From an uncultured delta proteobacterium (GTDB taxonomy: Bacteria > Myxococcota > UBA727 > VGSZ01), in contig CAVZJB010000008.1 in NCBI GenBank assembly GCA_963775425.1, positions 355,424 to 419,423 of the forward strand: a stretch of 64,000 nt of DNA, read 5' to 3'. Both the position numbers and the translations under genes were made by a program. The notes under the pieces were generated by a model that did not search any database, had not been told where the DNA came from, and worked only from the letters and a program-made list of their open reading frames with translations. This document shows positions 28,081 through 46,576 of the stretch, in pieces. The number at the start of each line of letters is the position of its first letter. Positions within the stretch are counted from its first letter, which is position 1.

Positions 28081-29057
28081 CGCGGCGCCGGCGTCCGCGC
28101 GACGATCTCGTCGACGACGCCCCGCGCGCGCTGCCGCGCCTCGGCGCCCTCGGGGACGCCGCGCACGGCGAGGCGGTGCACGAGGACGGCGTGGGCGGTG
28201 GCCTTGACGTCGTCGGGGAGGACGAACGCGCGCCCCGCGAGGACGGCCCGGGCGCGGCACAGCGCTGCCCAGCTCAAGGCGCCGCGCGGCGAGCACCCGA
28301 GCTCCACCGCCGGATGCGTGCGCGTGGCGTCGACGATGCGCAGGAGGTACGCGGCCACCGCGTCCGAGAGCGGGAGCGCCTTCACCTCCGCCTGCAGCGC
28401 GCGCACGCGATCCGGATCGAGGTGGGGCGCGAGCGCGCGGAGCGCGTCGTCGGCGGTGCGGTTCCCGACGAGGAGACGGCGCTCGTCCTCCGGCGGCGGA
28501 TAGCCGAGCGTGAGGCACACCATGAAGCGGTCGAGCTGGCTCTCGGGGAGCGGGTAGGCCCCGTGGTGCTCCACGGGGTTTTGCGTGGCGAGCACCACGA
28601 AGGGCGGCGGCAACGCGTGGGTCTCGTCGTCGACGGAGACCTGGAAGTCGGCCATGGCCTCGAGCAGCGCCGACTGCGTCTTCGGCGACGCGCGGTTGAT
28701 CTCGTCGGCGAGGACGACGTGGGCGAACAGCGGGCCGCGCTTGAAGCGCAGGGTGGTGGTGGCGGTGTCGAGGATCTGGACGCCGATGACGTCGGACGGG
28801 AGCAGATCCGCCGTGAACTGGATGCGCGAGAAGCTGCACCCGAGCGCCTTGGCGATGGCGCGGGCGAGCGTGGTCTTTCCGACCCCGGGGACGTCCTCGA
28901 GCAGCACGTGGCCGCCGGCGAGGACGGCGGCGAGGGCGAGCCGGACCGTCTCGGGGTTTCCGCGCACGACCTCGAGCACCGCGTGCTCGACGGCCGCGAG
29001 CTGCGCCGATCCCCGCGGTGCGTCAGGGGTGGGCAACGGGGGTACGCTGTCTGCCAT
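28077..29057 (-). CDS. moxR: MoxR family AAA+ ATPase
   Basis: LEDVPGVGKT, RIQFTADLLPSD, DEINRA, ATQNP. Confidence 0.95.
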   Translation of the reverse strand: MADSVPPLPTPDAPRGSAQLAAVEHAVLEVVRGNPETVRLALAAVLAGGHVLLEDVPGVGKTTLARAIAKALGCSFSRIQFTADLLPSDVIGVQILDTATTTLRFKRGPLFAHVVLADEINRASPKTQSALLEAMADFQVSVDDETHALPPPFVVLATQNPVEHHGAYPLPESQLDRFMVCLTLGYPPPEDERRLLVGNRTADDALRALAPHLDPDRVRALQAEVKALPLSDAVAAYLLRIVDATRTHPAVELGCSPRGALSWAALCRARAVLAGRAFVLPDDVKATAHAVLVHRLAVRGVPEGAEARQRARGVVDEIVARTPAPR

Positions 29058-29102
29058 GGCCAGCGAGCCTACCAGACGCGCCGGCTGCGCTACGTTCGGG
29101 GC

Positions 29103-31523
<2,421 letters not shown>

Positions 31524-31576: not shown

Positions 31577-32422
31577 GTGCACGCGCATCGCCGATCGAAC
31601 GCTCCCTCCGGTCGCCGATCCCACGCGGCCGCTCCCTCCGGTCGCCGATCCCACGCGGCCGCTCCCTCCGGTCGCCGATCCCACGCGGCCGCTCCCTCCG
31701 GTCGCCGATCCCACGCGGCCGCTCCCTCCGGTCGCCGATCCCACGCGGCCGCTCCCTCCGGTCGCCGATTGGCCGTCGCGCTGCTCGGCGCGCTCGCGCT
31801 CGCCGTCCTCGTCGCCTTCCCCGCGCACGCCGCCGGCAGCAAGGCAAAGGCGCGCACGCTCTTCCATCAGGGACAGAGCGCCTACGAGGCCGGCGACTTC
31901 CAGGGCGCGCTCGACCTCTTCCAGGAGGCATACGCCACCGTCCCCGCGCCCGCGCTCTACTTCAACATCGCGCAGTGCTACCGGAAGCTCGGCGATCACG
32001 CGCACGCCGTCGAAGCCCTCGAGAAGTACCGCAAGCTCCAAAAGAGGATCCCCGCGTCCATCCGCAAGGAGCTCGAAGCGCAGCTCGCCGAAGAAAAGGC
32101 GCTCCTCGCCTCGCCCCCACCCGAGGCGGCGCCGCCCCCACCTGCCGCGCCGGATCCGCCGCCACCGCCACCGGCGCCGCCGCCGGCAGCGCCACCCGCC
32201 GCGTCCGTGCCGCCGCCGCCCGCTCCCGACGAGGCGCGCCCCGCCGCGGCCGTCGACGACGACGCGGCGCCCCTCTGGCAGAACCCGTTCGTCATCGGGG
32301 CCGCCGTCGGTGTCACGGCGGCCGCCATCGCCGGCGGCGCCGCCGCGGTGCTCTACTACACGGCACCGGGACCGCCGGTCCCGTCGACGACGCTCGGCGC
32401 GATCGACCTGAGGGATAAATGA
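31577..32422 (+). CDS. TPR protein with Pro-rich linker and C-terminal TM
   Basis: ARTLFHQGQSAYEAGDF, LYFNIAQCYR; start uncertain. Confidence 0.8.
   Translation: MHAHRRSNAPSGRRSHAAAPSGRRSHAAAPSGRRSHAAAPSGRRSHAAAPSGRRSHAAAPSGRRLAVALLGALALAVLVAFPAHAAGSKAKARTLFHQGQSAYEAGDFQGALDLFQEAYATVPAPALYFNIAQCYRKLGDHAHAVEALEKYRKLQKRIPASIRKELEAQLAEEKALLASPPPEAAPPPPAAPDPPPPPPAPPPAAPPAASVPPPPAPDEARPAAAVDDDAAPLWQNPFVIGAAVGVTAAAIAGGAAAVLYYTAPGPPVPSTTLGAIDLRDK
31601..31769 (+). repeat. Perfect 30-bp tandem repeat, about 5.6 copies
   Basis: GCTCCCTCCGGTCGCCGATCCCACGCGGCC repeated with no spacers. Confidence 0.95.
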
Positions 32423-34962
32423 GCGCCTCCCGCAGCAGGACGTGCGCGCTCCTCGCGGTCGCCGCGCTCGCGTGCGGTTGCCGCGACCCGCAGGCCGTCA
32501 TCATCGTCGGCGCCACCCTCGACCCGTCGCTCGGCATCGACCAGCTCGCGTTCACGCTCTCGAGCGGAGACACCAGCATCGAGGCCACGGCACCCGATGC
32601 GCCCGGCGAGGCGTTCGCAGACCGCGAGCAGACCGCGGCGTTCCTCCTCCCGCCGGCGCTCGTCGACGTCGACGTCGCCGTCGCCGTCGAAGGCAGCGCG
32701 GACGGCGGCGCCGGACGCGAGGTGCGCGCCCGCGGTGAAAACAGCATCCGCACCATCCCCGACACCACCGTGAAGGTCTTCGTCAAGCTCGCCTCCGTCC
32801 CCTTCTGCGGCGACGGTGTCCTCGACGACGGCGAGGCCTGCGACGACGGTGGCATCGCCGATGACGACGGCTGCTCCTCCGTCTGCGAGATCGAGCGCGG
32901 CTTCGTGTGCAGCGGCGCCCCCTCCCTGTGCGTGTCCGCGTGCGGCGACGGCGAGGTCGCCACCGGCGCCGAGGAGTGCGACGACGGCGGCGGCGACAGC
33001 GGCGACGGCTGCTCCGCGGCGTGCACCGTCGAGATCGGCTACGCCTGCGACGGCTCGCCCTCCGTGTGCGCGCCGGTGTGCGGCGACGGCCTCCTCGTCG
33101 GCGGCGAGGCGTGTGACGACGCGGACGTCGGCGACGGCGACGGCTGCTCGTCGACCTGCGCGGTCGAAGCCGGTTTCACGTGCAGCGGCGCGCCGTCGGC
33201 GTGCACCGCCGTCTGCGGCGACGGGCTCGTGCGCGGCGCCGAGGACTGCGACGACGTCGTTGGCGCGCCCGTCGACGGCGACGGTTGCTCTTCGACGTGC
33301 ACCCTCGAGACCGGTTACGCGTGCACCGGAGAGCCGTCCACCTGCGCGCCGGTGTGCGGCGACGGCGTCGTCGTCGCCGGCGTCGAGGGCTGCGACGATA
33401 GCGGCACCGCCGACGGTGACGGCTGCTCTTCGACGTGCACCCTCGAGCTCGGCTTCACGTGCGCGGGCGAGCCCACGGTGTGCGCGCCCGTGTGCGGCGA
33501 CGGCCTCGTGCGCGGCGGGGAGCAGTGCGACGACGTGGTGGGCACGCCGACGGACGGCGACGGTTGTTCGTCGACGTGCACCTTCGAAGAAGGCTTTTCG
33601 TGCGCGGGCGAGCCCACGGTGTGCGCGCCCGTGTGCGGCGACGGCCTCGTGCGCGGCGGGGAGCAGTGCGACGACGTCGTGGGCACGCCGACAGACGGCG
33701 ACGGCTGCTCGGCGGTGTGCGCCCGCGAGAGCGGCTTCGACTGCACGGGCGAGCCCAGCGTCTGCAGCACGGTGTGCGGCGACGGCCTCGTGCGCGGCGC
33801 GGAGGAGTGCGACGACGGCGCGGGCAACGGCAACGGCGCGGACCAGTGCCGCTCGGGCACGTGCACGCTGCCGTTCTGCGGCGACGCCATCACCGACACC
33901 GGCGAGCAGTGCGACGACGGCAACGCGGCCAACGACGACGCTTGCCGCACCGACTGCCGCACGCCGACGTGCGGCGACGGCTTCCTCGACCAGGGGGAGG
34001 CGTGCGACGACGGCAACATCGCGCCGGGGGACGGCTGCTCCGACACGTGCACCGTCGAGGCGACGTTCTCGTGTCTCGGGTCGCCGAGCGTGTGTGTGGC
34101 CACGGCCAACGTGCACGTCATCGGCGCGGGCGGGGAGTTCACCGTGATCGGAGACGCGGTGGCGTCGTCGTCGGTGGTGAGCGGCGACACGCTGTTCATC
34201 CTGAGCGAGTCGTTCAACGAAAACGTCGCCATCTCCACCAAGGACCTCACGTTGGTGGCCGACGCCGGCGCGGTCTTGTTCTCCGACGCCGACGGCAACG
34301 ACCTCGAGGCGTTGAACGTGAGCGGCGGCCGGACGGTGTCCGTGCAGGGCCTTTCCATTCGTCAGACCTCGCCCTCGAGCTCGAGCTCGGCAGTGACGGT
34401 GTCCGGCGCCGGCACGAGCCTGACGGTGCGGGGCTGCACGCTGGGGCCCTCGGGGCGCATCGGCGTCGACGCGGCGTCGGGGACGACGGTGACGCTCGAG
34501 CGGACCCTGGTGCAGGGCAACAGCGGAGGCGGCCTGGTGCTCGCGGGCGACTACACCGTCGACAACACGGTGGTCACCGGGAACGGGACCTCCGCGTCCG
34601 CGGTGGGCGGCGCGTCGCTCGCGGCGAGCGGCGTGTTCCGCTTCGACACGGTGGCGGGCAACACGTCGGCGTCGACGTCGCCGGCGGGCGTGGTCTGCGC
34701 GTCGGCGACGGCGCTGGTGTCATCGGTGGTGTTCGGCAACGCCGGCGCCGCCACCGAGGTCTCGGCCGCGTGCGACGGCTCGACGAGCAGCGTCGGCGTC
34801 GATCCCCTCTTCGACACCGACGGCTTCCACCTCTTGCCCGCGTCCCCCGTCGTCGACCAGGCGCCCGTCGCCGGCTGCCCCGCCCTCGACTTCGACGGCG
34901 AAGCCCGCCCCATCGGCACGCTCTGCGATCTCGGCGCCGACGAGCGCCCCCGCGGCCCCTGA
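32419..34962 (+). CDS. Myxococcal Cys-rich repeat (DUF4215-like) lipoprotein with C-terminal beta-helix
   Basis: Many CGDG...E.CDDG....DGCS..C repeats; pectin-lyase-like tail ending CDLGADE. Confidence 0.9.
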   Translation: MSASRSRTCALLAVAALACGCRDPQAVIIVGATLDPSLGIDQLAFTLSSGDTSIEATAPDAPGEAFADREQTAAFLLPPALVDVDVAVAVEGSADGGAGREVRARGENSIRTIPDTTVKVFVKLASVPFCGDGVLDDGEACDDGGIADDDGCSSVCEIERGFVCSGAPSLCVSACGDGEVATGAEECDDGGGDSGDGCSAACTVEIGYACDGSPSVCAPVCGDGLLVGGEACDDADVGDGDGCSSTCAVEAGFTCSGAPSACTAVCGDGLVRGAEDCDDVVGAPVDGDGCSSTCTLETGYACTGEPSTCAPVCGDGVVVAGVEGCDDSGTADGDGCSSTCTLELGFTCAGEPTVCAPVCGDGLVRGGEQCDDVVGTPTDGDGCSSTCTFEEGFSCAGEPTVCAPVCGDGLVRGGEQCDDVVGTPTDGDGCSAVCARESGFDCTGEPSVCSTVCGDGLVRGAEECDDGAGNGNGADQCRSGTCTLPFCGDAITDTGEQCDDGNAANDDACRTDCRTPTCGDGFLDQGEACDDGNIAPGDGCSDTCTVEATFSCLGSPSVCVATANVHVIGAGGEFTVIGDAVASSSVVSGDTLFILSESFNENVAISTKDLTLVADAGAVLFSDADGNDLEALNVSGGRTVSVQGLSIRQTSPSSSSSAVTVSGAGTSLTVRGCTLGPSGRIGVDAASGTTVTLERTLVQGNSGGGLVLAGDYTVDNTVVTGNGTSASAVGGASLAASGVFRFDTVAGNTSASTSPAGVVCASATALVSSVVFGNAGAATEVSAACDGSTSSVGVDPLFDTDGFHLLPASPVVDQAPVAGCPALDFDGEARPIGTLCDLGADERPRGP

Positions 34963-34996: not shown

Positions 34997-35419
34997 TCAA
35001 CGCGCGAGCGACCACAAGCGGCGCAGCGCCCGCCGCCACCGCGGTGGGGTCGGCGTCGGCCCGCGCACGGGCCCGCCGTCGACGGAGACGACGAGGCCGA
35101 CGACCTCCTGCGGGGCGAACCAGCCGTCGGGGCTCGGGCACGCGTCACCCTTGGTGAGCACGCGCCCGGCGGCGTCGATGCCCACCACCCGGTGCACCAT
35201 GAGGGAGACACGCGCATTGGTGACCGCAACGACCTCGCCAAGCCGAGGCGGTCTCGCGAGCGGCGCCAAGGTCAGGGTGGCGCCGTTGCGGATGGCGGCC
35301 TGCATGGACCCGCCGCGCGCGATGATCGTCTGCCCGTTTCCCCGCCGCAGGACCTCGATGACGAGGTCGAGACGGGCCATCTCCAGGTTGACGGCGCGCG
35401 CGCGTGACGCGGGCCTCAT
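34997..35419 (-). CDS. S24/S26 family peptidase (SipW-like Ser-His dyad), putative RiPP leader peptidase
   Basis: GGSM, VHRVV, TKGD motifs; no N-terminal TM; ATGA-coupled to the methyltransferase. Confidence 0.82.
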   Translation of the reverse strand: MRPASRARAVNLEMARLDLVIEVLRRGNGQTIIARGGSMQAAIRNGATLTLAPLARPPRLGEVVAVTNARVSLMVHRVVGIDAAGRVLTKGDACPSPDGWFAPQEVVGLVVSVDGGPVRGPTPTPPRWRRALRRLWSLAR

Positions 35420-36546
35420 GAGGCACGCTCCGCCGAAGCGATCATGCGGAGGACATCTTGTTCAGCGTCGCCGTCGTCGAGATAGCGGTCGGGATACGCG
35501 CTGCGAAGCCGACGCGCCATCGTCGGCACGTCCCCGGCGTCTCCACCGAGCGCCGCCGCCCATCGCGCCAAAGCCGCCGGCGCGGAGCCCTTTCCCGGAA
35601 CGACGATGTCGAGCTGTCGCAGCCAATCGTCGCGATCACCGACGAGCGACTTCATCGCGTTGCCTTCGCTCCGTTCGGCCCCGCTGCGAGCCGACCACTT
35701 CCAGGTCCCGCGATCCGTGAGCAGGCGCGTGCGTACCTCGACGTGGACGTCGTCACCGGGCGAGACGGACAACGGTTGCGCGAGGGGAAAGACGAGGTGC
35801 GCCCAGTGCGTGGAGGCGGCCGCCGGCGAGGACGACAGGCGGACTCCCTCGACGAGATCGGATTCGAACCAGCCGACCAGCGCGTTGACGCGAGCCGCTC
35901 TGGTGGCGCGCGAGACGCCGCTTACCATCGCCGGCGGCGGTCCATCGACGTCGAATCGCGCGGAGCAGGACGAGCCTGCGATGGCATCACCTGGGACCCG
36001 AGCGAGAGAGACGCGTGAGAGCAGGCGATCGGCGAGCCCGTTCATGGTGACGCCGAGCTGGCCGCGGATCATCCCGACTTCCCGATCGAGCGCGGGCAGC
36101 TCGGCGACAGCGACATGGGTCTCGACGGAGCCCGGGATGACGCGACAGCTCTGCGCACAATGCTTGCGCACGGTGCCGAGGAGGCCGCGGTAGTCCTCGT
36201 CGATGCCGAAGCTGCCGATCATCTCGCTCACGAGGACGTTCGGGGCCAGCGGGAGCTTGATGTCCCTGGCGTCGCCGCGGATGACCTCGATGACGCTGTC
36301 GAGGCCGTTGTCCCGCGCGGCCTCCCTCACGATCTCGACCATGGGGCCGCGCTCCAGCGCGTAGACGCGCCGCGCGCCGGCCTTGGCGCAGAGCAGGGCG
36401 AGGATGCCGCTCCCGGAGCCGACATCGACCACGACGTCGCCCGGTTTCACGCCTTGCTCGATCGCCGCGGCGAACGCCGACATTCGCACGCGGTCGACGA
36501 GCATCATCGCGTGGTTGGCGACGTCGTCGTATCCAAAGACACCCAC
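35416..36546 (-). CDS. PRMT-like SAM-dependent methyltransferase
   Basis: HAMMLVDRVR, VVDVGSGSGIL, double-E loop SEMIGSFGIDE, THW loop. Confidence 0.85.
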   Translation of the reverse strand: MGVFGYDDVANHAMMLVDRVRMSAFAAAIEQGVKPGDVVVDVGSGSGILALLCAKAGARRVYALERGPMVEIVREAARDNGLDSVIEVIRGDARDIKLPLAPNVLVSEMIGSFGIDEDYRGLLGTVRKHCAQSCRVIPGSVETHVAVAELPALDREVGMIRGQLGVTMNGLADRLLSRVSLARVPGDAIAGSSCSARFDVDGPPPAMVSGVSRATRAARVNALVGWFESDLVEGVRLSSSPAAASTHWAHLVFPLAQPLSVSPGDDVHVEVRTRLLTDRGTWKWSARSGAERSEGNAMKSLVGDRDDWLRQLDIVVPGKGSAPAALARWAAALGGDAGDVPTMARRLRSAYPDRYLDDGDAEQDVLRMIASAERAS

Positions 36547-36570
36547 GATCTACCTCGGTCTGCGCCCGGA

Positions 36571-37779
36571 CTAGTCGAACATCGCGAGGACGTTGCCCGC
36601 GGTGCCTTCCGCCTCGGGCAGGGTCGTGTCGCCGACGATGCTCAGCGGACGGCCGCCGCGACCGATCTTGGCGTTCGTACGTTCGGCGCGCTCGGCGAGG
36701 CGGACCAGCGCTTCAGCGCTCGTCTGCGACGCCGTGTTGCACGCCCGGAAGTCGCCGTGCTCGACCTGCCCGTACGCCATGCATGGGTGGCAAGCGGACC
36801 TGACGCTGCACGACGGGCACGACGTCATCTTCTCGAAGGTCATGCCGCGCATCTCGTGAAGGACGGCGTTGCGCTCCCAGATGTCCCGCAGCGCGTTGTT
36901 GCGGACGTTGCCCACGGCGGTAGGGAAGAACCCGCACGGGAGCACGTCGCCGGACGCCGCGACCGCGAGCGTGGAGCTCCCCGCGCCGCACATCGCCGAC
37001 GAGCCGTGCAGGAAGTCCGCGCCGTGGCAGATGGTGTCCGGTGTGACCTCGCGAAACCCCGGGTAGAGGTCGCGCCGCGCGAACACCTTGTCGGCGAGCG
37101 TCTTGGCATCGAGCGCGTACTTCAGCGTCGAGCGATCGTTGGACATCCGCGGGCGCACGTTCGGGTCGAGCTGGAACGCGACGCCGAGCTCATGGGCGAG
37201 CCGCACGATGTCGTCGATGCGGTCGACGCTGAACGTCGTCAGCACGCACTTGAGGGCGGCCTTCACCCCGTGCTCGGCGAGCATGCGCAGCGCGTCGGTG
37301 CTGCGCTTCCACGAGCCGGGGATCCGCGTGAACGCGTCGTGGTCGGCCGCGACATCCGAGTAGACCGAGATGTCGACCTGCGCCACGCCGAGCTCCTTCA
37401 AACGAAGGATCTTCTCGCGATTGAGCAGCGTGCCGCTGGTGAACAGGGTGGTGTGGAACCGGAGTCTCTTGGCGACGGCGAGGATCTCGAAGATGTCGCG
37501 CCGCAGGAAGATCTCGCCGCCCGTGAGGGTGAGCTGGAGGCATCCGAGCGCGGCGAGGTCGGTGAGAACACCCTCGACCTCCGAGAGCGACATCATCTCG
37601 TCGGTGGCGTGCGTGCTCTCGTCCTCGTAGCAGTGCTCGCACTTCAGGTTGCACGCGTTCACCAGATAGACCTGCGCGTGGAACGGGATTGCCCGTTCCC
37701 TGGCGCGCTCGCGCAGCTCGAGGAAGCGCGCCGGCGTCCGATCGAACATCTGCCCGAGGATCGGCAGCGCCTTGCTCAC
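36571..37779 (-). CDS. Radical SAM/SPASM peptide maturase
   Basis: CNLKCEHC, TGGE, SPASM CGAG...GDVLPC...CPSC...CHPC...C. Confidence 0.93.
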   Translation of the reverse strand: MSKALPILGQMFDRTPARFLELRERARERAIPFHAQVYLVNACNLKCEHCYEDESTHATDEMMSLSEVEGVLTDLAALGCLQLTLTGGEIFLRRDIFEILAVAKRLRFHTTLFTSGTLLNREKILRLKELGVAQVDISVYSDVAADHDAFTRIPGSWKRSTDALRMLAEHGVKAALKCVLTTFSVDRIDDIVRLAHELGVAFQLDPNVRPRMSNDRSTLKYALDAKTLADKVFARRDLYPGFREVTPDTICHGADFLHGSSAMCGAGSSTLAVAASGDVLPCGFFPTAVGNVRNNALRDIWERNAVLHEMRGMTFEKMTSCPSCSVRSACHPCMAYGQVEHGDFRACNTASQTSAEALVRLAERAERTNAKIGRGGRPLSIVGDTTLPEAEGTAGNVLAMFD

Positions 37780-38609
37780 GCCGCCTTCCGGGACGCTGCG
37801 AGGTGACCCTCGATCTCGTCGATGATCGTTGCGAGAGGGGTGTCGACGTGGCGCGCGAGGGAGAAGACCGGCGTGGTCTGGACCGCGCGCTGCGCCCAGG
37901 CGAGCGCCGCCCGGCCCTCCGCCGGCGTGCGCTCGAAACAGCACAGGTGGCGCAGCAGCTCCCCGGCCGCCCGCGCACGATCTTCGCGCACGCTGAGGGC
38001 GGTGCGCGGCGGTCGGTCCGCGGACAGCAGGACGAGGGCCCGAACGGCGTGGTGGGTGGGACGCGCCCGCCGCGTGGCGAGCCCTGAAAACGGCGAGCCC
38101 CACACCGCGAGGCCGCCCTGTGTCGGCGTCACGATGCTCTGATCGTCCGACAAGTACACGTCGTCCGGTGTGCCCTCGACGAGCGTGGTCTTCCCGGCGC
38201 CCGAGAGGCCGCAGAAGACGTAGCCGCCGGCGCCGAACGCCGCTGACGCCGCGTGCAGGAGGGCGCCCCCCGCGCGCAGGAGGATGCTGGCGCAGGCGGC
38301 CCGCAGGAAGGACTCGAACAGGGGGAAGCCACCGTCGCCCTGGTCGAGGCTGCCGGTGTACTCGGCCCTGCGCGTTCGGAGGTCGAGCGTGGCCGTGAAC
38401 GCCCCGGCGCGCGTCAGGTGGAGCGTGTCCCCGTCGACGCGGGTGTGGATCTCGGCGAGCGCTCCAACGTCCGCCGGCGGCGTCCGGCGGCCGACGACGG
38501 CGACCTCGAGGTCAGGCGGGCGGCGCGCGTCCTCGCGCTCGCAGCACCAGTCGACGGGAGCGTCGACCGACGTTGCGATGCGCAGAGGGCCGACGCGCCA
38601 GAGCGTCAA
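37776..38609 (-). CDS. HprK-related P-loop kinase (ScmC/lasso-kinase-like)
   Basis: LLHAAS, GLSGAGKTT, LSDD, GSPF; TTG start overlaps precursor TGA. Confidence 0.82.
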   Translation of the reverse strand: MTLWRVGPLRIATSVDAPVDWCCEREDARRPPDLEVAVVGRRTPPADVGALAEIHTRVDGDTLHLTRAGAFTATLDLRTRRAEYTGSLDQGDGGFPLFESFLRAACASILLRAGGALLHAASAAFGAGGYVFCGLSGAGKTTLVEGTPDDVYLSDDQSIVTPTQGGLAVWGSPFSGLATRRARPTHHAVRALVLLSADRPPRTALSVREDRARAAGELLRHLCCFERTPAEGRAALAWAQRAVQTTPVFSLARHVDTPLATIIDEIEGHLAASRKAA

Positions 38610-38782
38610 GACGCACCCAGCGTCGTGCAGCTCGCCGCTCCGTTCTTCGGCTGCGGCGTGCGGCCACCCTGCGTTCCGTTGCACCCGAGCGCCAGGCGCT
38701 CGTAGGTCTCGGAGCTCACGATCGCGGGCGGCTTGTAGGGGCTCTTCTTCTTCTGCTGCTGCGGCATCCGCACCTCGCTCAT
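38606..38782 (-). CDS. Putative RiPP precursor peptide (58 aa)
   Basis: MSEVRMPQQQKKKSPYKPPAIVSSETYERLALGCNGTQGGRTPQPKNGAASCTTLGAS; YxxPxI RRE-binding motif; starts 3 nt after upstream stop, stop overlaps kinase start. Confidence 0.85.
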   Translation of the reverse strand: MSEVRMPQQQKKKSPYKPPAIVSSETYERLALGCNGTQGGRTPQPKNGAASCTTLGAS

Positions 38783-38785
38783 GGT

Positions 38786-41700
38786 TCAGAAGCGTACGAT
38801 GATCGAGCCCGGCCGGGTGGTCGGCTCCAGGATCAAATCGGGCTCGGGCGAGCTGCCGATCAGGTTGGCGGCGCTCACGAAGACGGCGTCCGAGCCGGTC
38901 ACCGTGATGGCGTAGGTCGTGTCCGCGGTCTTGGCGGCGATGGGGTTGGCGCCGAAGGCGATGGACGTGGCGGTCTTGCCGCCCTGGACGAGGTCGGCGC
39001 GGGCGTCCCCGTTCAGGCTCGGCAGCACGAGGGACGTGCCGACGAGGAGCACGTTGCCGCCGCCGAAGGTGGTCTCGCCGCTCCACGTCGCGCCCGTGTT
39101 CTCCACCACGGTGAGGCCGTCCTGCGAGAAGTAGACCGCGTCGATGTCGCCGTCGCCGTCGACGTCACCGCTCGACAGATCGAAGCCCGGCGTGCGGGAC
39201 ACCGACTTGGTGATGGCGACGAAGTCGTTGCCCGTCGTGCCGTTGAGGTCGAGGGTGGCCGGCCACGTGTCCTGGCCGCGGACGACGAACAGCGACGGCA
39301 CGCTGCCCGTGCACGAGATCATGATGTCGTCGCGTGTGTCGCCGTTGGACCCGACGCCGGCGATGCCGGCGCCGAAGCCCGCGGAGCCTGTCGCGTCGCT
39401 GTTGGAGATGACGGTGCTGGCCACGTCGTCGATGAGGCCGCTCGTGGGCACGGCCCCTGTGTTGAGGAACACGTAGGCCTTGGCGAGCAGCGGGGCGGTG
39501 AAGCCCCAATCCGGGGCGCCGTCGCCGTCGACGTCTCCGAGCGTCTGCGCGTTGTAGCCGGCGAGGCCGAAGGTCGGCGCCTCGAGCACCGCGGCGGGCG
39601 TGGCGTCGGAGGCGATGCCGGTGCTGCTGCCCGGGTAGATGAAGAGGAACTCCTGATTGAAGTTGCTGTCGTACCCGACGACGATGACGTCGTCGAACGC
39701 GTCGCCGTCGATGGACTTGACGACGTTGACCGCCCAGCCCATCTCGAGCGGCGTGCACGTGCCCGCGGCGCACGGGAACGACGCCGGCGGGGTGACGACG
39801 GTCCGCTGCAGGTCGTTCTCCGTGGCGCCGCCGAGGATGACCTCGAAGGCCCCCGCCTGGCCGGCGAACTGGTTCGGCGCGCCGACCACGATGTCGTCGA
39901 GGTTGTCGCCGTTGATGTCGCCGCGCGAGCGCGACAGCGCCTGCGCCCAACCGTTCACGCCGGCCGGCGGCGCGAGCGTGACGCTGTTGGTGGCGACGAC
40001 GACCTGCGTGGTGGCCAGGGCCGAGCGGTTGCCGACGTCGTCGGTGGCGCGCAGCGCGATGAACCACGTGTTGTCGAACGCGAGCGGCGTCGTCGACGTA
40101 TCGACGAGCTCACCGGTGCCGCCATTGGCGGTCTGCGCGACGTTCGCCGCCGCGATCTGGCCGGCGCCGCCGAAGTTGGCGTCGGTGATGGCCGTCTTGG
40201 AGAAGAAGATCTGGACCGCGGTGGGGCCGGCGGCGTTGTCGAAATTGTCATCGCCGGGCTGTGTGTAGGTGACGCCGACGTTGCCGGCGCGCGCATCGAG
40301 CACCGCGACGTTGAGCGTGGGCGAGCCCGGCGACGTGATGTCCACGGTGGCGATGAACGAGTCCGGCGTCGTGGGTGTGTTGCCCTCGGAGTCGGTGCAC
40401 GTGGCCGTCCAGGTCTCCGCGTCGCCTTGCGCGGCGTCGCTCACGGCGACCGCAAGGCTCCCGCTGCCCGAGGCGTCGACGTTCGTCGAGCCGATCACCG
40501 TGGCGCCGTCGAGGACCTGCAACACGCCGTTTTCGCACTGCGTGACGTCGACGTTGACCTGCACCTGCAGGCCGGCGACGCCCTGCTGGAGGTCGCTGGC
40601 CTTGTTGAACGTCGCCGTCGCGCCCGCGGGGTTGGTGAAAGCGGTGGTCGGGCGCCCGAGGTCGACGCGGAAGCTCTCCTCCCCGCTCGTGCCCGTCTTG
40701 GGACCGTCCTGCACCGTGACCTCGAACGTGCCGGTGGCGCCGTCGTCGAGCGTGAACGCGGCGCACGACAGGCCGCCGGCGCCGTCCACGGTGCACGTGG
40801 TGGCGGTGGCGCCGTTGATGAGCACTTGCGCCGTGGCGGTCACCGGAGCGTCGGTGGTGCCGGTGACGACGATCTGCGCACCCGTGGCGCCGGCGTCGGT
40901 GTCTTCGGCCACGCCGACGGAGCGGAAGCCGGCGCGCAGCGGCGGGTTGGTGATGGCCACGAAGAAGATGCCGGTGGCGACGGTGACGGTGACGGTGTTG
41001 GACACGCCTACGTTGCCGGCGGCGTCGGTGGCGGCGGCGGTGACGTGATGGTCGCCTTCGGCCAGGTAGGTGACGCGGCACTGGACGGCGACGCCGTCGC
41101 CGGCCGAGACGCAGGGGAAGCCCGCGGTGTTGATGGCGCCGCCCTGAAGGTCGCTCGTGATGGTGATGGGCAACCCGGCGGCGAGTCCGGTTGGCGTGAC
41201 GGTGACGTTCACCTGGACGCCGTTGGTGGCGTTGCCGTCGAGGTCATCCGCGCTGCCGGCGTCGTTCGCCACGAGCACGAGAACCGGCGGCGCGGTGTCG
41301 ACGGAGACGGCGACCGGGTCGCTCGTCGCCGGGTTTCCTGCCGGATCGGAGACCGTGGCGGTGATGGCGCGGTTGCCGTCGGGGACGGTGACGCGCACCG
41401 TGACGGAGCCGTTGTTGAGCGTGCCCGGAGCACCGCTGGGCGTGCCGTCGATCGCGATCTGCACGCTCTGGCCGTCGCCGGCGTCGCTCGTCACGATGAC
41501 GTCCGTCTGCAGCCCGTTCGAAGCGTCGCCGTCCGCGTCGTCGGCCAGGTTCAACGTGCCGGCTGGTGGCGCCTCGACGACGACGACGGGCGGGACGGTG
41601 TCGACGGTGACGGTGAGGTGCGTGGTGTTCGGGTCGAGCGCATTTCCGCCGGGATCCGAGCCCGTGACGACGAGCTCGTCGTCTCCCTGGGTGAGGGGGA

Positions 41701-43696
41701 ACGTGGTGAAGGTCGCGGCCCCTCCGCTCACGACGGCGGTCTTGGTGCCGCCCGGACCCGTCAGGCGAACCGTGCGGCCGTCCATGTCGCTGCTGAACGT
41801 CACCGTGACGTCGCTCGCGACGTTCCCGGTTGCGGCGCCGCCGTTGTCGGCGGCGTTGAGGACGTTGTCGCTCCCCGCGTTGTCCACGACGATGGATTCG
41901 ACGGTGGGAATGCTCGAGTCGGTGTTGAACGTGATGGGACCACTGGTGTGCACGTTCCCCGCCGCGTCCGCCGCGGTCGCGGACAGCGTGTGGGTTCCGT
42001 CGTCGAGGGTGACGGTGGCGGTGCACGACGTTCCGGCGACGGCACCGGTCTGCTCCACGCCGTCCACCGTGACCGTGCAGGACGTCGTCCCCGCCGAGAC
42101 CACGAGGACGATGCGGGCCTGGAATCCGGCCGTGCTCGGATCCGCGTCGTTGCTCGCGTTGAGGCTCAACCCCGCGTTGGGGGAGAAGAACACGACGTCG
42201 GGGTCGACCGTGTCGATGACGATGTCACGCGTGATGTGCGGGCCGTCGACGTCGGTGGCGCTGACCGCGAAGACCTCGAGGTGCCAGGTGGCGCGGTCGG
42301 AGAAGTCGATGTTGAGGCTCTCGAGGAAGGGCGCGGACAGGTCGACCGCGGTCTCCTCGAGTGCGAGGTTGCCCGCCGGATCAGTGAGTCTGACGGTGCC
42401 GGTCAAGCCGGTGACGTCGCCCGAAGGCGTGAACGTCGCCGCGATCTCGAGCACATCGGCGGTGGAGAGGTCGGGGTCGTCCGCCGCGAGGTATGCGCCG
42501 TCGTTGCCGCTGCCGGTGGGGTCGAGCGTGATGCTGAACGTCGGCGCGCTCGACTGGACCGTGAAAAGAACCACGGTGTCCTCGCCGTCGACGGTGAGCG
42601 TGAGGGTGCAATCGGGCTGAACGAGTCCGTCGATTTGCGCGGTGATGTGCACTCTTCCGTTGGTCGGTGTGAGGGTGATTTCCGGATTCGCGCCCCCGGA
42701 GGTCCCCGTGATTTCCTGGTTGCCGGCCGTGGGATTGGCGTCGTCCTGGCAGAGCGCGTCGAACGAGACCGCGCTTGCCTCGTCGGCGGTGGCGTCGAGC
42801 GCGATGCTGATGCCGTCGAACGGATTGCTGTTGAGGTCGTCGGCGTCGGTGTAGGGCGGCGCGGTGCGCGGGCTGACGACATCCACCTGGTTGGGGAGGT
42901 TCACGTGGATAAGGATCGTGGGGTCGATGGTGACGATGTCAGGAGCGAGGCCGAGCGCATTGGTGGGGTCGAGGAGCTGGCCGCCGAGCGTGGCATCCTC
43001 GCCCTTGGTGAGCGGCACCGTGGCGGTGCCCACGGCGTTGGCGAGCTGCGCCGTACCGCTGGTGGTGACGTTCGTGGTGTCGGACGTGGCGTCGACGCGC
43101 ACCTGCGCGGTGTTGAGGAACGCGATGATGGTGGGGTCCGTGCTCGTGGTGGAGCAGGCCACGCCGACGTCGAAGGGCGTCTCCGTGGCGGTGTCGCCGT
43201 CACCCGGGGACGTGATGTGGCACTCGACGCTGAATTCCTGGCCCTCGACGCAGTCGTCGCGGATGGTCGCGGTGTCGGTGAGGTCCTGGGTCGAGTCGCC
43301 GTTGCTCGCGACCGCCGTCAGCGTGTTCTCGGCGCCGGGCGCCTCGCCGCCGACGAGGGTGATGCGGACCGTGGCCTCGCCGTCCGTGAAGGTGCCGCTG
43401 CCGGTGTTGCCATCGGTGCCGCGGGCGTCGCTGACGTCCACGGAGCCGTAGCCGCTGCCGTCGTCGTTGATGAGGTCCACCTGGAGGTCGATCTGCACGC
43501 CGGGCGTATTGGGGTCGACGTCGTCGGCGCAGTGCACGACGTCGGGGAGGCCCGCGAACGCGATGGAGGGCTGCTCCGGCTCGCCTTCCGCGGGCTTGCA
43601 GGAGTCGTCGCAGCAGCAGGAGTCACCGCACGCGGCGGCGACCGACAGACCCAGAATCAACCCGCCCAGGCGCACAATGGAATTCGTGAAAAACAT
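38786..43696 (-). CDS. Large surface lipoprotein with tandem Ig-like domains and C-terminal FG-GAP/integrin-like beta-propeller
   Basis: Lipobox VAAAC, repeated ATDAAGN/DTVPP Ig motifs, [23 protein letters not shown]. Confidence 0.85.
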   Translation of the reverse strand: MFFTNSIVRLGGLILGLSVAAACGDSCCCDDSCKPAEGEPEQPSIAFAGLPDVVHCADDVDPNTPGVQIDLQVDLINDDGSGYGSVDVSDARGTDGNTGSGTFTDGEATVRITLVGGEAPGAENTLTAVASNGDSTQDLTDTATIRDDCVEGQEFSVECHITSPGDGDTATETPFDVGVACSTTSTDPTIIAFLNTAQVRVDATSDTTNVTTSGTAQLANAVGTATVPLTKGEDATLGGQLLDPTNALGLAPDIVTIDPTILIHVNLPNQVDVVSPRTAPPYTDADDLNSNPFDGISIALDATADEASAVSFDALCQDDANPTAGNQEITGTSGGANPEITLTPTNGRVHITAQIDGLVQPDCTLTLTVDGEDTVVLFTVQSSAPTFSITLDPTGSGNDGAYLAADDPDLSTADVLEIAATFTPSGDVTGLTGTVRLTDPAGNLALEETAVDLSAPFLESLNIDFSDRATWHLEVFAVSATDVDGPHITRDIVIDTVDPDVVFFSPNAGLSLNASNDADPSTAGFQARIVLVVSAGTTSCTVTVDGVEQTGAVAGTSCTATVTLDDGTHTLSATAADAAGNVHTSGPITFNTDSSIPTVESIVVDNAGSDNVLNAADNGGAATGNVASDVTVTFSSDMDGRTVRLTGPGGTKTAVVSGGAATFTTFPLTQGDDELVVTGSDPGGNALDPNTTHLTVTVDTVPPVVVVEAPPAGTLNLADDADGDASNGLQTDVIVTSDAGDGQSVQIAIDGTPSGAPGTLNNGSVTVRVTVPDGNRAITATVSDPAGNPATSDPVAVSVDTAPPVLVLVANDAGSADDLDGNATNGVQVNVTVTPTGLAAGLPITITSDLQGGAINTAGFPCVSAGDGVAVQCRVTYLAEGDHHVTAAATDAAGNVGVSNTVTVTVATGIFFVAITNPPLRAGFRSVGVAEDTDAGATGAQIVVTGTTDAPVTATAQVLINGATATTCTVDGAGGLSCAAFTLDDGATGTFEVTVQDGPKTGTSGEESFRVDLGRPTTAFTNPAGATATFNKASDLQQGVAGLQVQVNVDVTQCENGVLQVLDGATVIGSTNVDASGSGSLAVAVSDAAQGDAETWTATCTDSEGNTPTTPDSFIATVDITSPGSPTLNVAVLDARAGNVGVTYTQPGDDNFDNAAGPTAVQIFFSKTAITDANFGGAGQIAAANVAQTANGGTGELVDTSTTPLAFDNTWFIALRATDDVGNRSALATTQVVVATNSVTLAPPAGVNGWAQALSRSRGDINGDNLDDIVVGAPNQFAGQAGAFEVILGGATENDLQRTVVTPPASFPCAAGTCTPLEMGWAVNVVKSIDGDAFDDVIVVGYDSNFNQEFLFIYPGSSTGIASDATPAAVLEAPTFGLAGYNAQTLGDVDGDGAPDWGFTAPLLAKAYVFLNTGAVPTSGLIDDVASTVISNSDATGSAGFGAGIAGVGSNGDTRDDIMISCTGSVPSLFVVRGQDTWPATLDLNGTTGNDFVAITKSVSRTPGFDLSSGDVDGDGDIDAVYFSQDGLTVVENTGATWSGETTFGGGNVLLVGTSLVLPSLNGDARADLVQGGKTATSIAFGANPIAAKTADTTYAITVTGSDAVFVSAANLIGSSPEPDLILEPTTRPGSIIVRF

Positions 43697-43785
43697 GGAC
43701 CCCTCCCGAAAACGACCCACGGATGAGTTGACACATGATCGGGGGCTCCTCAACCCCGCCATGCCTCGCACGACAGGCCGCCGGC

Positions 43786-44094
43786 TCACGACGGGGACTC
43801 GGAGGTCAAAAGGAGGTTCCGTGCCAGGGCGTCGTCCACGAAAACAAGCGCGTCGGCACGCAAGGTCTCTTCGTCGACCTCGAACTCCTCGAGCATCTCG
43901 ACGACGATGGCGTCGAGCGTGCGGGTGCCGTCGGCGCGGTCCCAGATGAAGGTGGCTGTGTCGTTCAGCGTGTGCAGCGTCGAGTCTTCAGGCGTGATCA
44001 CGATTGCTTCCCCGTCGATGGTCCGCGCCGGGGTATCGGGATTCTGACGTAGATACAGGGTCCACATGCGGGCGCGGGGGTTGGTGTCGTTCAT
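43786..44094 (-). CDS. PqqD family RiPP recognition element (RRE)
   Basis: IDGEAIVI, LNDTATFIWDRADGTRT...EEFEVD. Confidence 0.92.
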   Translation of the reverse strand: MNDTNPRARMWTLYLRQNPDTPARTIDGEAIVITPEDSTLHTLNDTATFIWDRADGTRTLDAIVVEMLEEFEVDEETLRADALVFVDDALARNLLLTSESPS

Positions 44095-44106
44095 CGGCGG
44101 GCTCGT

Positions 44107-45273
44107 TCAATTCTGAAGGAGGGCGTCGACCTCCCCCTGGATGACCGCGGGGTCGGTGTAGCCGAGGTGCATGTGCCGCACCGTGCCGGCCTTGTCGACG
44201 ATGTAGGAGGTGGGCAGCGTGGTCAGCCCGAGCCGCTCGCCGAAGAAGCGGTCGTCCACGACGCAGTCGAAGCTCGGCCGGATCTGTGCCAAGGCCTTGC
44301 CCGCGGCCTTCGGGTCGTGGGGCTCGCGGTTGACCCCGAGGACGGCGAGGCCGCGGCCGCGGTAGCGCTCCGCCAGCGCCGACAGCTCCGGCATCGAGCG
44401 GCGGCAGGGGCCGCACCAGGACGCCCAGAAGTCGAGGATCAGAACCTGGCCACGGAAGCTCGCCAGCTTCACCGCCTCCTTCTGGATGCCGTACTCGTCG
44501 AGCTTGTGCAGCCGCGTGTCGGGGAGCGGGTCGCCGACGAGGACGGGGCGGATGCGGTCGGCGTACTTGATCGACGACGTCACCGCCCCGGCCGACAGGG
44601 CCGCCAGGCTCGCGAGGAGCACGGCCCCGCCCGCGCGCAGCCGGGCCCGCGGCGGGGCGGGCGGGGCGCCGCCGGGGCGCCGCAGCCAGGGCACGAGGGT
44701 CAGCCCGAGGGCCAGGGGGACGCCGTAGGAGACCACGCACTTCACCACGAAGCGCAGCGCGCTCACCTGCCGCCCGACGACGACGGCCATGGAGTCGACG
44801 GCCTCGTTGGGCATCCACCAGCGCCCCGCGCCGAACCCCGCGAACGCGCCGCCGACGGCGATGAGCGCGACGAGCGGCACCGTCAGGTACGCCGCCGCCA
44901 CCGCCGCGCGCCACGGGGATACGCGCCCCTTCGTGAGCAGGCGCGCGAGCGCCGCGACGACGGCGCAGGTGGCGAGCAAGAGCGCGGCGTGCGTCTTCAG
45001 GTCGTCGAAGAGCGTGTCGCGGATGCGCCGGAGGATGACCTCACCGCCCGCGCCCACGAGGAAGGACAGCCGCGCGAGCACCTTGACGTCGACGACGACC
45101 ACGGCCGCGACGAGCAGCGCCACCGGCGGCCACCACGGCGCGCCCCGCGCGGCGACGGCCCGCAGCGTGCGCACCGGCGCGGCGATCATGCCGCCGAGGG
45201 CGTCGAGCGCGCCCACGGGCCCCGCGGCCGGGGCGTCGACCTCGCCGGTCGACCGCGCGCCGGCGCCGCTCAC
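44107..45273 (-). CDS. Membrane-anchored TlpA-like thiol-disulfide redoxin with Yip1-like TM N-terminus
   Basis: LDFWASWCGPC, LPTSYIVD; several TM helices. Confidence 0.82.
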   Translation of the reverse strand: MSGAGARSTGEVDAPAAGPVGALDALGGMIAAPVRTLRAVAARGAPWWPPVALLVAAVVVVDVKVLARLSFLVGAGGEVILRRIRDTLFDDLKTHAALLLATCAVVAALARLLTKGRVSPWRAAVAAAYLTVPLVALIAVGGAFAGFGAGRWWMPNEAVDSMAVVVGRQVSALRFVVKCVVSYGVPLALGLTLVPWLRRPGGAPPAPPRARLRAGGAVLLASLAALSAGAVTSSIKYADRIRPVLVGDPLPDTRLHKLDEYGIQKEAVKLASFRGQVLILDFWASWCGPCRRSMPELSALAERYRGRGLAVLGVNREPHDPKAAGKALAQIRPSFDCVVDDRFFGERLGLTTLPTSYIVDKAGTVRHMHLGYTDPAVIQGEVDALLQN

Positions 45274-45788
45274 GAGCGCGCTCCCGTCCGCGCCCGCAGC
45301 GACGCGAAGAAGTCCTTGAGCGCCGCGCCGCACTCGTCGGCGAGGACGCCGGCGGTGACGTCGAGGCGGTGGTTGAGCCGCGGGTCGTCGCAGACCCGCG
45401 CGAGCGACGCGACGGCGCCGGCCTTCTCGTCGGTGGCGCCGTAGACGAGGCGGTCGATGCGCGCGTTCACCAGGGCGCCCGCGCACATGAAGCACGGCTC
45501 CAGCGTGACGACGAGCGTAGCCCCGGACAGCCGCCAGCGCCCGAGCGCGCGGGAGGCGGCGGCGATGGCGCGGATCTCGGCGTGGCCGAGCGGGTCGAGG
45601 TCCACCTCGCGCCGGTTCATGCCCTCGCCGACGATCTCGCCGTCGACGACGACCACGGCGCCCACCGGCACCTCGCCGAGCGCCCGCGCCTCCGCCGCGA
45701 GCGCGAGCGCCCGGCGCATGAAGCGCTCGTCCCCGGCTGCGTCGGCGCCGCGCGCGGGCTCGTCCGCCGGGAAGGCAGGCCGGTTCAC
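45270..45788 (-). CDS. tadA: tRNA adenosine(34) deaminase
   Basis: GEVPVGAVVV, HAEI, TLEPCFMC, KAGA, NHR. Confidence 0.92.
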   Translation of the reverse strand: MNRPAFPADEPARGADAAGDERFMRRALALAAEARALGEVPVGAVVVVDGEIVGEGMNRREVDLDPLGHAEIRAIAAASRALGRWRLSGATLVVTLEPCFMCAGALVNARIDRLVYGATDEKAGAVASLARVCDDPRLNHRLDVTAGVLADECGAALKDFFASLRARTGARS

Positions 45789-46576
45789 GACGGGTACCAC
45801 GGGTGCATGTGGTGCACCGGGCCGCGCCCGCGGCCGATGCCGGGCGCCGTGCGAATGGCCTCCTGCACGTACGCGTGCGCGCGCACCACGGCTTCGACGA
45901 GGGGGAGGCCGAGCGCGAGGCAGGCGCAGACGGCGGCCGAGAGCGCACAGCCCGTGCCGTGGGTGTGCATGGTGTCGATGCGCGGCGACACGAGCTCCTT
46001 GACGGCGTCGCCGTCGAAGAGGACGTCGACGGGATCGCCCTGAGCGTGGCCGCCCTTCACGAGCGCCGCCTTGGCGCCGAGCTGCACCAGCGCGCGCGCG
46101 GCCTGCTCCTGCTCGTCGACGTTGCGGACGAGGAAGCCGCAGAGCTTCTCCGCCTCGGCGAGGTTGGGCGTCACCAGCGTGGCGTGCGGGATGAGGCGCT
46201 CGCGCAGCACGCGCACGCCGTCGTCGTCGAGGAGGGTGGCGCCGGAGGAGCTCTGCATCACCGGATCCACCACGACCGGCACCGCGCACTTGATGAGCTC
46301 GACGGCGACGGCGTCGGCGACGGCGCCGCTCCCGAGCATGCCGGTCTTGATGGCGCGCACCGGGATGTCGTCGAGGACGGCGTCGATCTGGTCGGCGACC
46401 AGCGCCGGATCGAGGGCCGCCACCCGCCGGACGCCGAGGGTGTTCTGGGACGTGACCGCCGTGACGGCGGCGGTGCCATAGACCTGCAGCGCGGCGAAGG
46501 TCCGCAGGTCCGCCTGGATGCCGGCGCCGCCCGACGGATCGGAGCCTGCGACGGTGAGCGCGCATGGGAGCGTCAT
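45785..46576 (-). CDS. thiD: Hydroxymethylpyrimidine/phosphomethylpyrimidine kinase
   Basis: AGSDPSGGAGIQAD, KTGML, TPNLAEA, HGTGC. Confidence 0.95.
   Translation of the reverse strand: MTLPCALTVAGSDPSGGAGIQADLRTFAALQVYGTAAVTAVTSQNTLGVRRVAALDPALVADQIDAVLDDIPVRAIKTGMLGSGAVADAVAVELIKCAVPVVVDPVMQSSSGATLLDDDGVRVLRERLIPHATLVTPNLAEAEKLCGFLVRNVDEQEQAARALVQLGAKAALVKGGHAQGDPVDVLFDGDAVKELVSPRIDTMHTHGTGCALSAAVCACLALGLPLVEAVVRAHAYVQEAIRTAPGIGRGRGPVHHMHPWYPS

Follow-up and report, generated by a model that had tools for sequence, protein, structure and literature searches.

A protein arginine methyltransferase homologue encoded in a myxobacterial peptide-maturation operon, a candidate tailoring enzyme of a ribosomal peptide

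What does an enzyme with the hallmarks of a eukaryotic protein arginine methyltransferase (PRMT) do among the peptide-maturation genes of a bacterium? PRMTs methylate the guanidino group of arginine, a modification regarded as one of eukaryotic proteins, and the locus that raises the question lies in a 64,000-nucleotide stretch of DNA (the window) from contig CAVZJB010000008.1 of an uncultured member of the Myxococcota (assembly GCA_963775425.1). The gene in question, at 35416..36546 on the minus strand, codes for a 376-aa S-adenosylmethionine (SAM)-dependent methyltransferase of the PRMT fold, in which a Rossmann domain and a beta-barrel are followed by a helical tail of some 80 aa at the C-terminus. 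The initial annotation of this DNA had taken the protein for a PRMT-like tailoring enzyme of a ribosomally synthesised and post-translationally modified peptide (RiPP), acting on the single core arginine of a neighbouring precursor. We propose, with a probability of roughly 0.55, that a myxobacterial RiPP-type pathway has co-opted a type I-like PRMT as an accessory tailoring enzyme, which would methylate residue R41 of the precursor peptide.

Its third-position G+C of 0.84 makes 35416..36546 a plausible real gene; the G+C content of the whole stretch is 71.5%. The gene starts with GTG, has an in-frame TAG directly upstream and GAGG a few bases before the start, and is the sole PRMT homologue that a search found in its genome. 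The open reading frame (ORF) lies at the coordinates first given for it, and every PRMT hallmark motif that had been claimed for the protein was found in the translation: the N-terminal helix motif H12..M15-L16..D18..R21; motif I, VVDVGSGSG, at residues 39-47, with the acidic post-I residue E65 in VYALE; the double-E loop SEMIGSFGIDE, whose glutamates E108 and E117 are nine residues apart; and the THW loop at T246-H247-W248. In an alignment of 22 sequences of the family, motif I, E65, E117 and W248 are invariant, while E108, T246 and H247 are kept in at least 90% of the sequences. In the YFxxY helix region, where the protein begins with (M)GVFGY, the Phe and the second Tyr (Y6) alone are present, and the in-frame stop upstream of the start leaves no space for further residues of this motif.

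Comparison with proteins of known structure points in the same direction and bears out the claimed likeness to eukaryotic PRMTs. A phmmer search against PDB sequences gave 76 matches at E ≤ 0.01, of which the best 60 are all PRMTs. The best match, PRMT6 (4y30, E 9.1e-24), extends over query residues 6-272, and in it the double-E loop and THW of the query align onto those of PRMT6 (SEWMG...E and THW). The type I enzymes PRMT6, PRMT1, PRMT3, PRMT8, CARM1 and PRMT2 outscore PRMT7 (1e-11) and PRMT5 (3e-10), and the Pfam family PRMT_C is matched with 32.3 bits, above its gathering score of 27. An AlphaFold2 model built on 22 relatives (predicted local distance difference test score 85.5, predicted template modelling score 0.75) consists of a Rossmann domain, a strand-rich domain at residues 194-296 and a helical tail of lower confidence at 298-375, and places helices 151-163 and 169-176 at the site expected for the dimerisation arm that is inserted in PRMT barrels. 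When this model was compared with the PDB by Foldseek, PRMT6, CARM1 and PRMT3 were matched with E values of 2e-27 to 1e-25 and target-normalised template modelling scores of 0.72-0.86 across 306-325 columns. Since so many columns are aligned, the structural match covers the beta-barrel, whose absence would have spoken against the initial interpretation.

The protein therefore has in common with the eukaryotic type I enzymes (PRMT6, PRMT1, PRMT3 and CARM1; 4y30, 1or8, 2fyt and 2y1w) the Rossmann domain and barrel, motif I, the post-I Glu, the double-E and THW loops and the H..M..D..R helix, with about 26% identity and a Foldseek E of about 1e-27. It differs from them in its bacterial host, in a start that falls inside the YFxxY helix (VFGY), in the helical extension 298-375, which has no counterpart in PRMTs, and in its place in a peptide-maturation operon, where it presumably acts on one Arg of a short peptide and not on a Gly/Arg-rich tract of a protein. 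That the product of 35416..36546 is a true PRMT homologue, type I-like, is strongly supported by these sequence matches and by the predicted fold.

The operon around the gene, all of it on the minus strand, codes in 5΄ to 3΄ order for a thioredoxin-like protein, a PqqD protein, a giant FG-GAP protein, the precursor peptide, an HPr-kinase-like protein, a radical SAM/SPASM maturase, the PRMT and an S24-like peptidase. At three junctions (precursor/kinase-like, kinase-like/radical SAM and PRMT/peptidase) the stop codon of one gene overlaps the start codon of the next, in the last of them because the ATG of the peptidase gene overlaps the PRMT stop codon (ATGA), and the gap between the radical SAM and PRMT genes is of 24 nt. 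That the PRMT belongs to a RiPP-type operon together with the precursor, the PqqD protein and the radical SAM/SPASM enzyme is a firm conclusion, and the position of its gene inside this operon makes it probable that the enzyme methylates an arginine of the precursor.

Is the association kept in other genomes? A search with a PqqD profile (E ≤ 1e-15) in a sample of 401 genomes of the phylum found the PqqD type of this operon in 37 of them, and the DNA downstream of most of the hits was compared with the window proteins. The layout of thioredoxin-like, PqqD, giant protein, small ORF, kinase-like, radical SAM and S24 peptidase genes recurs, with some reordering; loci with this layout are the window itself (34997-46056, minus strand) and, with L numbers denoting loci and G numbers genomes, L001, L147, L188 with L194, L192, L193, L196 and L204. 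Judged by this synteny, the operon looks like a conserved myxobacterial peptide-maturation system. Close relatives of the PRMT all come from metagenome-assembled genomes of Myxococcota, and the gene occupies the same slot, behind one or more radical SAM genes and ahead of that for the S24 peptidase, in three genera including that of the window: in the metagenome-assembled L001 (54% identity) and in L188 with L194 of genome G128 (45%). No PRMT is present in the homologous clusters L147, L192, L193 and L204, in each of which 18-20 kb were examined. Searches of whole genomes found no PRMT-like gene in G001 (E ≤ 1e-10), G037 or G116 (E ≤ 1e-20), and in G008, the genome of L204, PRMT-like genes lie on other contigs only. 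L196, whose sequence ends just past the radical SAM gene, was left out of this count. The four related clusters without it mark the PRMT as an accessory gene.

A further link between a PRMT-like domain and radical SAM chemistry is found in G080, a genome from another family of the phylum, where residues 117-259 of a 730-aa ORF (L191:11799-13991, plus strand) form a radical SAM domain and residues 453-730 a PRMT-like domain, which keeps both loop glutamates and lacks THW. Its cluster also codes for a PqqD protein, a giant protein, an M1 peptidase and a leader-bearing small ORF, the precursor, which ends ...GRYGPFRESPRREP. In the sister clusters L203, L208, L212 and L214 the radical SAM part occurs without the PRMT domain.

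The presumed substrate is the 58-aa product of 38606..38782 (minus strand), MSEVRMPQQQKKKSPYKPPAIVSSETYERLALGCNGTQGGRTPQPKNGAASCTTLGAS, which has homologous small ORFs at the same position in eight other clusters and no match among Pfam or NCBIfam models. Its leader carries Y16-x-x-P19 and a conserved ERLAL motif; the sequence reads ...ERLALGCNGTQGGRTPQPKNGAASCTTLGAS, and the core, GCNGTQGGRTPQPKNGAASCTTLGAS, has two Cys, a C-terminal Ser and one Arg, R41. This residue, noted at the outset as the single core Arg, in QGGRT, is the only Arg of the precursor past ERLAL. Nine small ORFs of clusters of the SPASM type align over K-R-P-Y-x-x-P...S-x-E-A-F-E-R-x-A-L-x-C-(N/T/S)-G, a shared region that is followed by a variable core with Pro and a second Cys, and in eight of the nine the last residue is Ser. 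Y-x-x-P-x-L is the leader motif of lasso peptides, and the Y-x-x-P-x-(L/I/V) leader of the present precursors recurs in small ORFs that neighbour lasso cyclase genes.

In clusters that have the PRMT the core begins GCNGTQGGRT (window), ACNGVTGRSS (L001) and ACSGTQSRAR (L188). The peptides of clusters that lack it begin SCNGEAAPGP, FCNGVNSGDN and SCNGVNPGGE (three ORFs of L147), SCTGANGIMA (L192), ACNETASEDE (L193) and ACQGKIASCE (L204). By a criterion picked after the data had been seen, in a small sample of related genomes, an Arg lies six to eight residues past the first core Cys in all three precursors of PRMT-bearing clusters and in none of the six peptides from the four PRMT-less clusters. 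Taken as sequence patterns, the accessory distribution, the radical SAM fusion and the position of the core Arg favour R41 of the precursor as the substrate.

The enzyme itself is consistent with such a role. It keeps E108, E117, H247, D18, R21 and M15, which we take from the PRMT1 literature to be the residues that bind the guanidino group or act in catalysis, and since all the guanidino-binding and activating residues of type I PRMTs are present, arginine is the most likely acceptor; its likeness to type I enzymes points to mono- or asymmetric dimethyl-arginine as the product. N-methylation of R41 by the PRMT is only suggested by these comparisons. A predicted complex of the PRMT with precursor and SAM obtained a score of 0.02, which counts neither for nor against it. 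A search for sequencing runs containing the locus listed none. We propose the following order of events. The PqqD protein would bind the 58-aa precursor by its lasso-like leader (Y-x-x-P), after which the radical SAM/SPASM enzyme would cross-link the core at its two Cys and the HPr-kinase-like protein would act on the C-terminal Ser. The PRMT, with SAM, would then methylate R41 in QGGRT, E108 and E117 holding its guanidino group, to give mono- or asymmetric dimethyl-arginine, and finally the S24-like peptidase would cut off the leader.

Several observations weigh against this proposal and have to be set beside the evidence that favours it. The core-Arg pattern depends on the position criterion already mentioned: when any core Arg is counted, three of the six peptides from PRMT-less clusters also have one. 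In clusters of the L191 type, the Arg-rich tail (YGP.RE.PRR) occurs without a PRMT domain as well (L220; L202 and L207 are cut sequences). Moreover, genes of the same clade as the one in the window are not confined to the cluster. In a quick IQ-TREE phylogeny of 58 sequences (with Shimodaira-Hasegawa-like approximate likelihood ratio test (SH-aLRT) support only; its 36 locus-derived rows were hand-picked for long matches from about 190 loci), the window, L001 and L188 belong to a clade of 17 rows (SH-aLRT 96) that also holds L189. The L189 gene, from genome G140 (44% identity), stands after a ferredoxin-like gene and before unrelated genes, and G140, which is 88% complete, yielded neither a cognate PqqD (E ≤ 1e-15) nor a cognate radical SAM gene (E ≤ 1e-40) in the searches. 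The partial metagenomic L083 (60% identity over the N-terminal 138 residues) lies directly downstream of a ferredoxin-like ORF. Eight distant full-length relatives of 35-42% identity (L002, L003, L018, L081, L082, L084, L085 and L190) have no cluster gene within the examined flanks, which for L002 and L081 reach less than 600 nt upstream. The C-terminal extension is common to these distant stand-alone relatives, so it is not a peptide-binding module specific to the cluster. Lastly, PSW replaces THW in L188, inside the cluster, and likewise in the stand-alone L189.

These relatives are the main support for a general myxobacterial PRMT that acts on cellular proteins, as the stand-alone ones have to, and whose place in the operon has nothing to do with the peptide, an explanation that we consider unlikely. 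In addition to the two clade members beside a ferredoxin gene and the eight distant ones, which are found in varied non-RiPP contexts and all have the C-terminal extension, it can point to PRMT-like genes in 83 of the 401 genomes of the phylum (E ≤ 1e-20). It does not fit well with the recurrence of the gene, in three genera, at one spot between the radical SAM and S24 peptidase genes where stop and start codons overlap, nor with the window genome having a sole PRMT homologue, a relative in L191 being fused to the radical SAM protein of its cluster, and the core-Arg pattern tracking the presence of the PRMT. With 13 metagenomic members (P0003-P0015) left out, the clade gene is in the cluster in three of the five contexts that could be placed (window, L001 and L188) and outside it in L189 and L083; among the 38 genomes of the order, four have the gene, three in the cluster and one outside. 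A search of the genome contigs with a clade-specific C-terminal alignment returned the three known loci and two weak unrelated hits only. The operon setting, the synteny and the accessory distribution favour the role in RiPP tailoring proposed initially, whereas the stand-alone relatives of the clade count against a dedicated role. The stand-alone members were observed in two unrelated records, at L189:10556-12273 (minus strand) and at L083:561-1624 (plus strand), and adjacency to ferredoxin hints at a second conserved context for the enzyme.

If the PRMT does tailor the precursor, it may still act elsewhere than on arginine, that is, on a Lys side chain, on the new N-terminus left when the leader is removed, on Asn/Gln, on Cys or on the C-terminus, although we judge this improbable. 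What speaks for it comes chiefly from other PRMT-like genes with RiPP neighbours. About 15 of the 145 loci retrieved with the PRMT alignment have lasso-cyclase, PqqD or HPr-kinase-like genes beside the PRMT-like gene (L010, L013, L020, L021, L023, L026, L086, L087, L089, L104, L112, L122, L127, L128 and L132), and L112 is a single 427-aa ORF with PRMT-like and PqqD domains; L010 and L112 also give Pfam PRMT_C hits. The lasso-linked sequences included in the tree form a clade of their own (SH-aLRT 97), in which the first loop Glu is changed to Asp and the second Glu and THW are lost, and several of their precursors (L104, L122, L127 and L132) have no core Arg. Given these degenerate double-E and THW loops, the chemistry of this clade is probably different, and to judge from its sequences the lasso-linked PRMT-fold enzymes probably do not methylate arginine; the loop losses and the Arg-less cores imply that the PRMT fold can be re-used for other RiPP chemistry. 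The conservation of K47 (in PK) and of the CNG motif between the precursors of the window and L001 would also suit a site other than arginine. Against it, the window enzyme keeps all the type I guanidino-binding and catalytic motifs listed above. The lasso-linked enzymes (for instance those of L010, L013, L086, L089 and L112) thus belong to the same fold family as the window PRMT and likewise stand beside PqqD or HPr-kinase-like genes, but they form a separate clade: theirs shows the PRMT fold taken into RiPP pathways and gives no support for arginine methylation there, while the clade of the window is, by its sequence, the one keeping the full PRMT signature. As a general rule, a core Arg going with a PRMT was rejected, since it fails in the lasso-linked clade and in clusters of the L191 type, and for this reason we limit the core-Arg claim to the clade of the window.

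Methylation of free L-arginine for a small-molecule pathway, as by SznE/StzE for streptozotocin, has the advantage of a known bacterial arginine-guanidino methyltransferase in a biosynthetic cluster (PMC11705231 and PMC12637814), and among bacterial gene clusters these enzymes offer the closest parallel that we know of for methylation of a guanidino group. Both systems would have in common a SAM-dependent methylation of the arginine guanidino group encoded in a bacterial gene cluster, which on the side of the PRMT is predicted; the likeness considered here is one of function. According to PMC11705231, the substrate of SznE is free L-arginine and its product goes to an N-nitrosating enzyme, whereas the partners here are all peptide-maturation proteins: Pfam and NCBIfam scans of 14 neighbouring ORFs found peptide-maturation, secreted or unrelated proteins only, and no small-molecule tailoring enzymes. 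As the full PRMT beta-barrel is kept as well, this alternative appears very improbable. The weakest, identity with the ribosomal protein L11 methyltransferase PrmA as public annotation has it, was rejected on family cut-offs and fold and retains a negligible probability: the mislabelling had been foreseen, and NCBI does call four homologues '50S ribosomal protein L11 methyltransferase', but the Pfam PrmA match (E 8.3e-8) is to profile positions 154-216 of 296, the SAM-binding core alone, NCBIfam prmA (TIGR00406) is matched with 28.5 bits where the cut-off is 183.15, and the top PDB and structural matches are all PRMTs.

How does this operon compare with known peptide systems? With clusters for lasso peptides of the paeninodin type it shares the PqqD-type leader binder, the HPr-kinase-like gene, the Y-x-x-P-x-L-type leader and the C-terminal Ser, and, according to a 2021 review (PMC8498205), this Ser is phosphorylated by the HPr-kinase homologue in paeninodin and other lasso clusters that have the kinase. 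The operon has no lasso cyclase and no B2 transglutaminase protease, and in their stead codes for the radical SAM/SPASM, S24-like, thioredoxin-like and giant FG-GAP proteins. With sactipeptides, ranthipeptides and the GeoRSP and SynChlorMet-type systems it has in common the PqqD protein together with a radical SAM/SPASM maturase and conserved core Cys, while the giant FG-GAP protein, the kinase-like protein and the PRMT do not belong to those systems. The accessible part of the same review names O-methyltransferase, kinase, nucleotidyltransferase, deiminase, acetyltransferase, hydroxylase and epimerase as lasso-tailoring enzymes and does not mention a PRMT (PMC8498205). In the full-text literature, subscription-only papers aside, we found no paper that connects an enzyme of the PRMT type with RiPP biosynthesis or with myxobacteria. 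To our knowledge, the known RiPP methyltransferases belong to other families and modify other target atoms.

These comparisons allow a broader reading, which we put forward tentatively and to which we give a little less than an even chance. Firstly, with methylation of R41 a ribosomal natural product would be seen for the first time to have a peptidyl arginine methylated by a PRMT-type enzyme. Secondly, the operon may represent an undescribed class of myxobacterial RiPP, with a lasso-type leader, PqqD and HPr-kinase-like proteins, cross-linking by radical SAM/SPASM chemistry, leader removal by an S24 peptidase and a giant secreted FG-GAP partner. Thirdly, the PRMT fold may have been drawn into peptide maturation at least three separate times: as the separate gene found here, as the radical SAM fusion of L191 and as the remodelled form linked to lasso genes, fused to PqqD in L112. 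If methylation of the precursor by the PRMT is true, a new modification would be added to RiPP chemistry, an enzyme family known from eukaryotes would be seen re-used in bacterial secondary metabolism, and mechanistic or engineering work would have at hand a bacterial PRMT that is compact and has a short, defined substrate. The locus also highlights a peptide-maturation system, conserved in myxobacteria, that lies outside the curated family models found.

The partner genes of the operon have the following features, all of them on the minus strand. The thioredoxin-fold protein (TlpA/ResA-like, with a long N-terminal part) is encoded at 44107..46056, which are open-frame limits, matches Pfam AhpC-TSA and Redoxin, and is kept upstream of PqqD in L147, L192, L193 and L195. 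The PqqD-family peptide chaperone, a RiPP recognition element, follows at 43786..44094 (Pfam PqqD, 4.6e-18) and is 61-75% identical to its counterparts in L001, L147 and L148. The giant secreted FG-GAP/Big_13 protein (38786..43789; about 1667 aa) has a signal peptide with a lipobox-like Cys, and a giant secreted protein of 1300-2300 aa lies between PqqD and precursor in all the related clusters. As a Gly/Arg-rich substrate for the PRMT, this protein was rejected: it has no RGG/GGR motif, contains 2.3% Arg and bears an export signal. The HPr-kinase-like P-loop protein (37776..38609; 277 aa, with GLSGAGKTT) gives a weak match to NCBIfam HprK_rel_B (E 0.0018), which its homologue in L001 matches at 2e-5, and is 45% identical to the L188 homologue across residues 1-277; its TTG start, which overlaps the precursor stop codon, was chosen by us. 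The radical SAM/SPASM peptide maturase (36571..37779; 402 aa; Pfam Radical_SAM 1.3e-20 and SPASM 4.6e-10) has a GTG start that overlaps the upstream stop codon (GTGA) and is 68% identical to its L188 homologue over residues 1-402. The nearest NCBIfam models include GeoRSP_rSAM, StsB, AlbA and PqqE, and it falls under every NCBIfam equivalog cut-off (for GeoRSP, for instance, 137.6 bits against 400).

The last gene of the operon (34997..35419) codes for an S24/S26-like peptidase of 140 aa, likely the leader peptidase; it matches NCBIfam signal peptidase I at E 1.2e-7, under the cut-off, and its homologues in L001 and L188 match Pfam Peptidase_S24. In these two clusters the S24-like peptidase (L001, 9092-10339; L188, 5518-6351; both plus strand) has an N-terminal extension, which in L001 is a second class I methyltransferase domain (Methyltransf_25), and the L001 cluster may thus install further methylation.

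Beyond the operon, and convergent with its end, the plus strand at 32419-34962 codes for a protein of 847 aa that combines nine cysteine-rich acidic repeats of the myxobacterial type (TIGR02232) with DUF4215 and a beta-helix region. The minus strand at 24905-31405 has an ordinary neighbourhood of the MoxR/TgpA type, which is not to be taken for a lasso B protease: it codes for a transglutaminase membrane protein like TgpA, for a MoxR-type AAA ATPase and, in an ORF that matched no family, for 539 aa. Elsewhere in the same genome there is a second PqqD-type match (G000:C11:351329-351568, locus L221), within an open frame of 674 aa, and a comparable one was found in a 499-aa frame of G029; both frames may code for PqqD fusion proteins.

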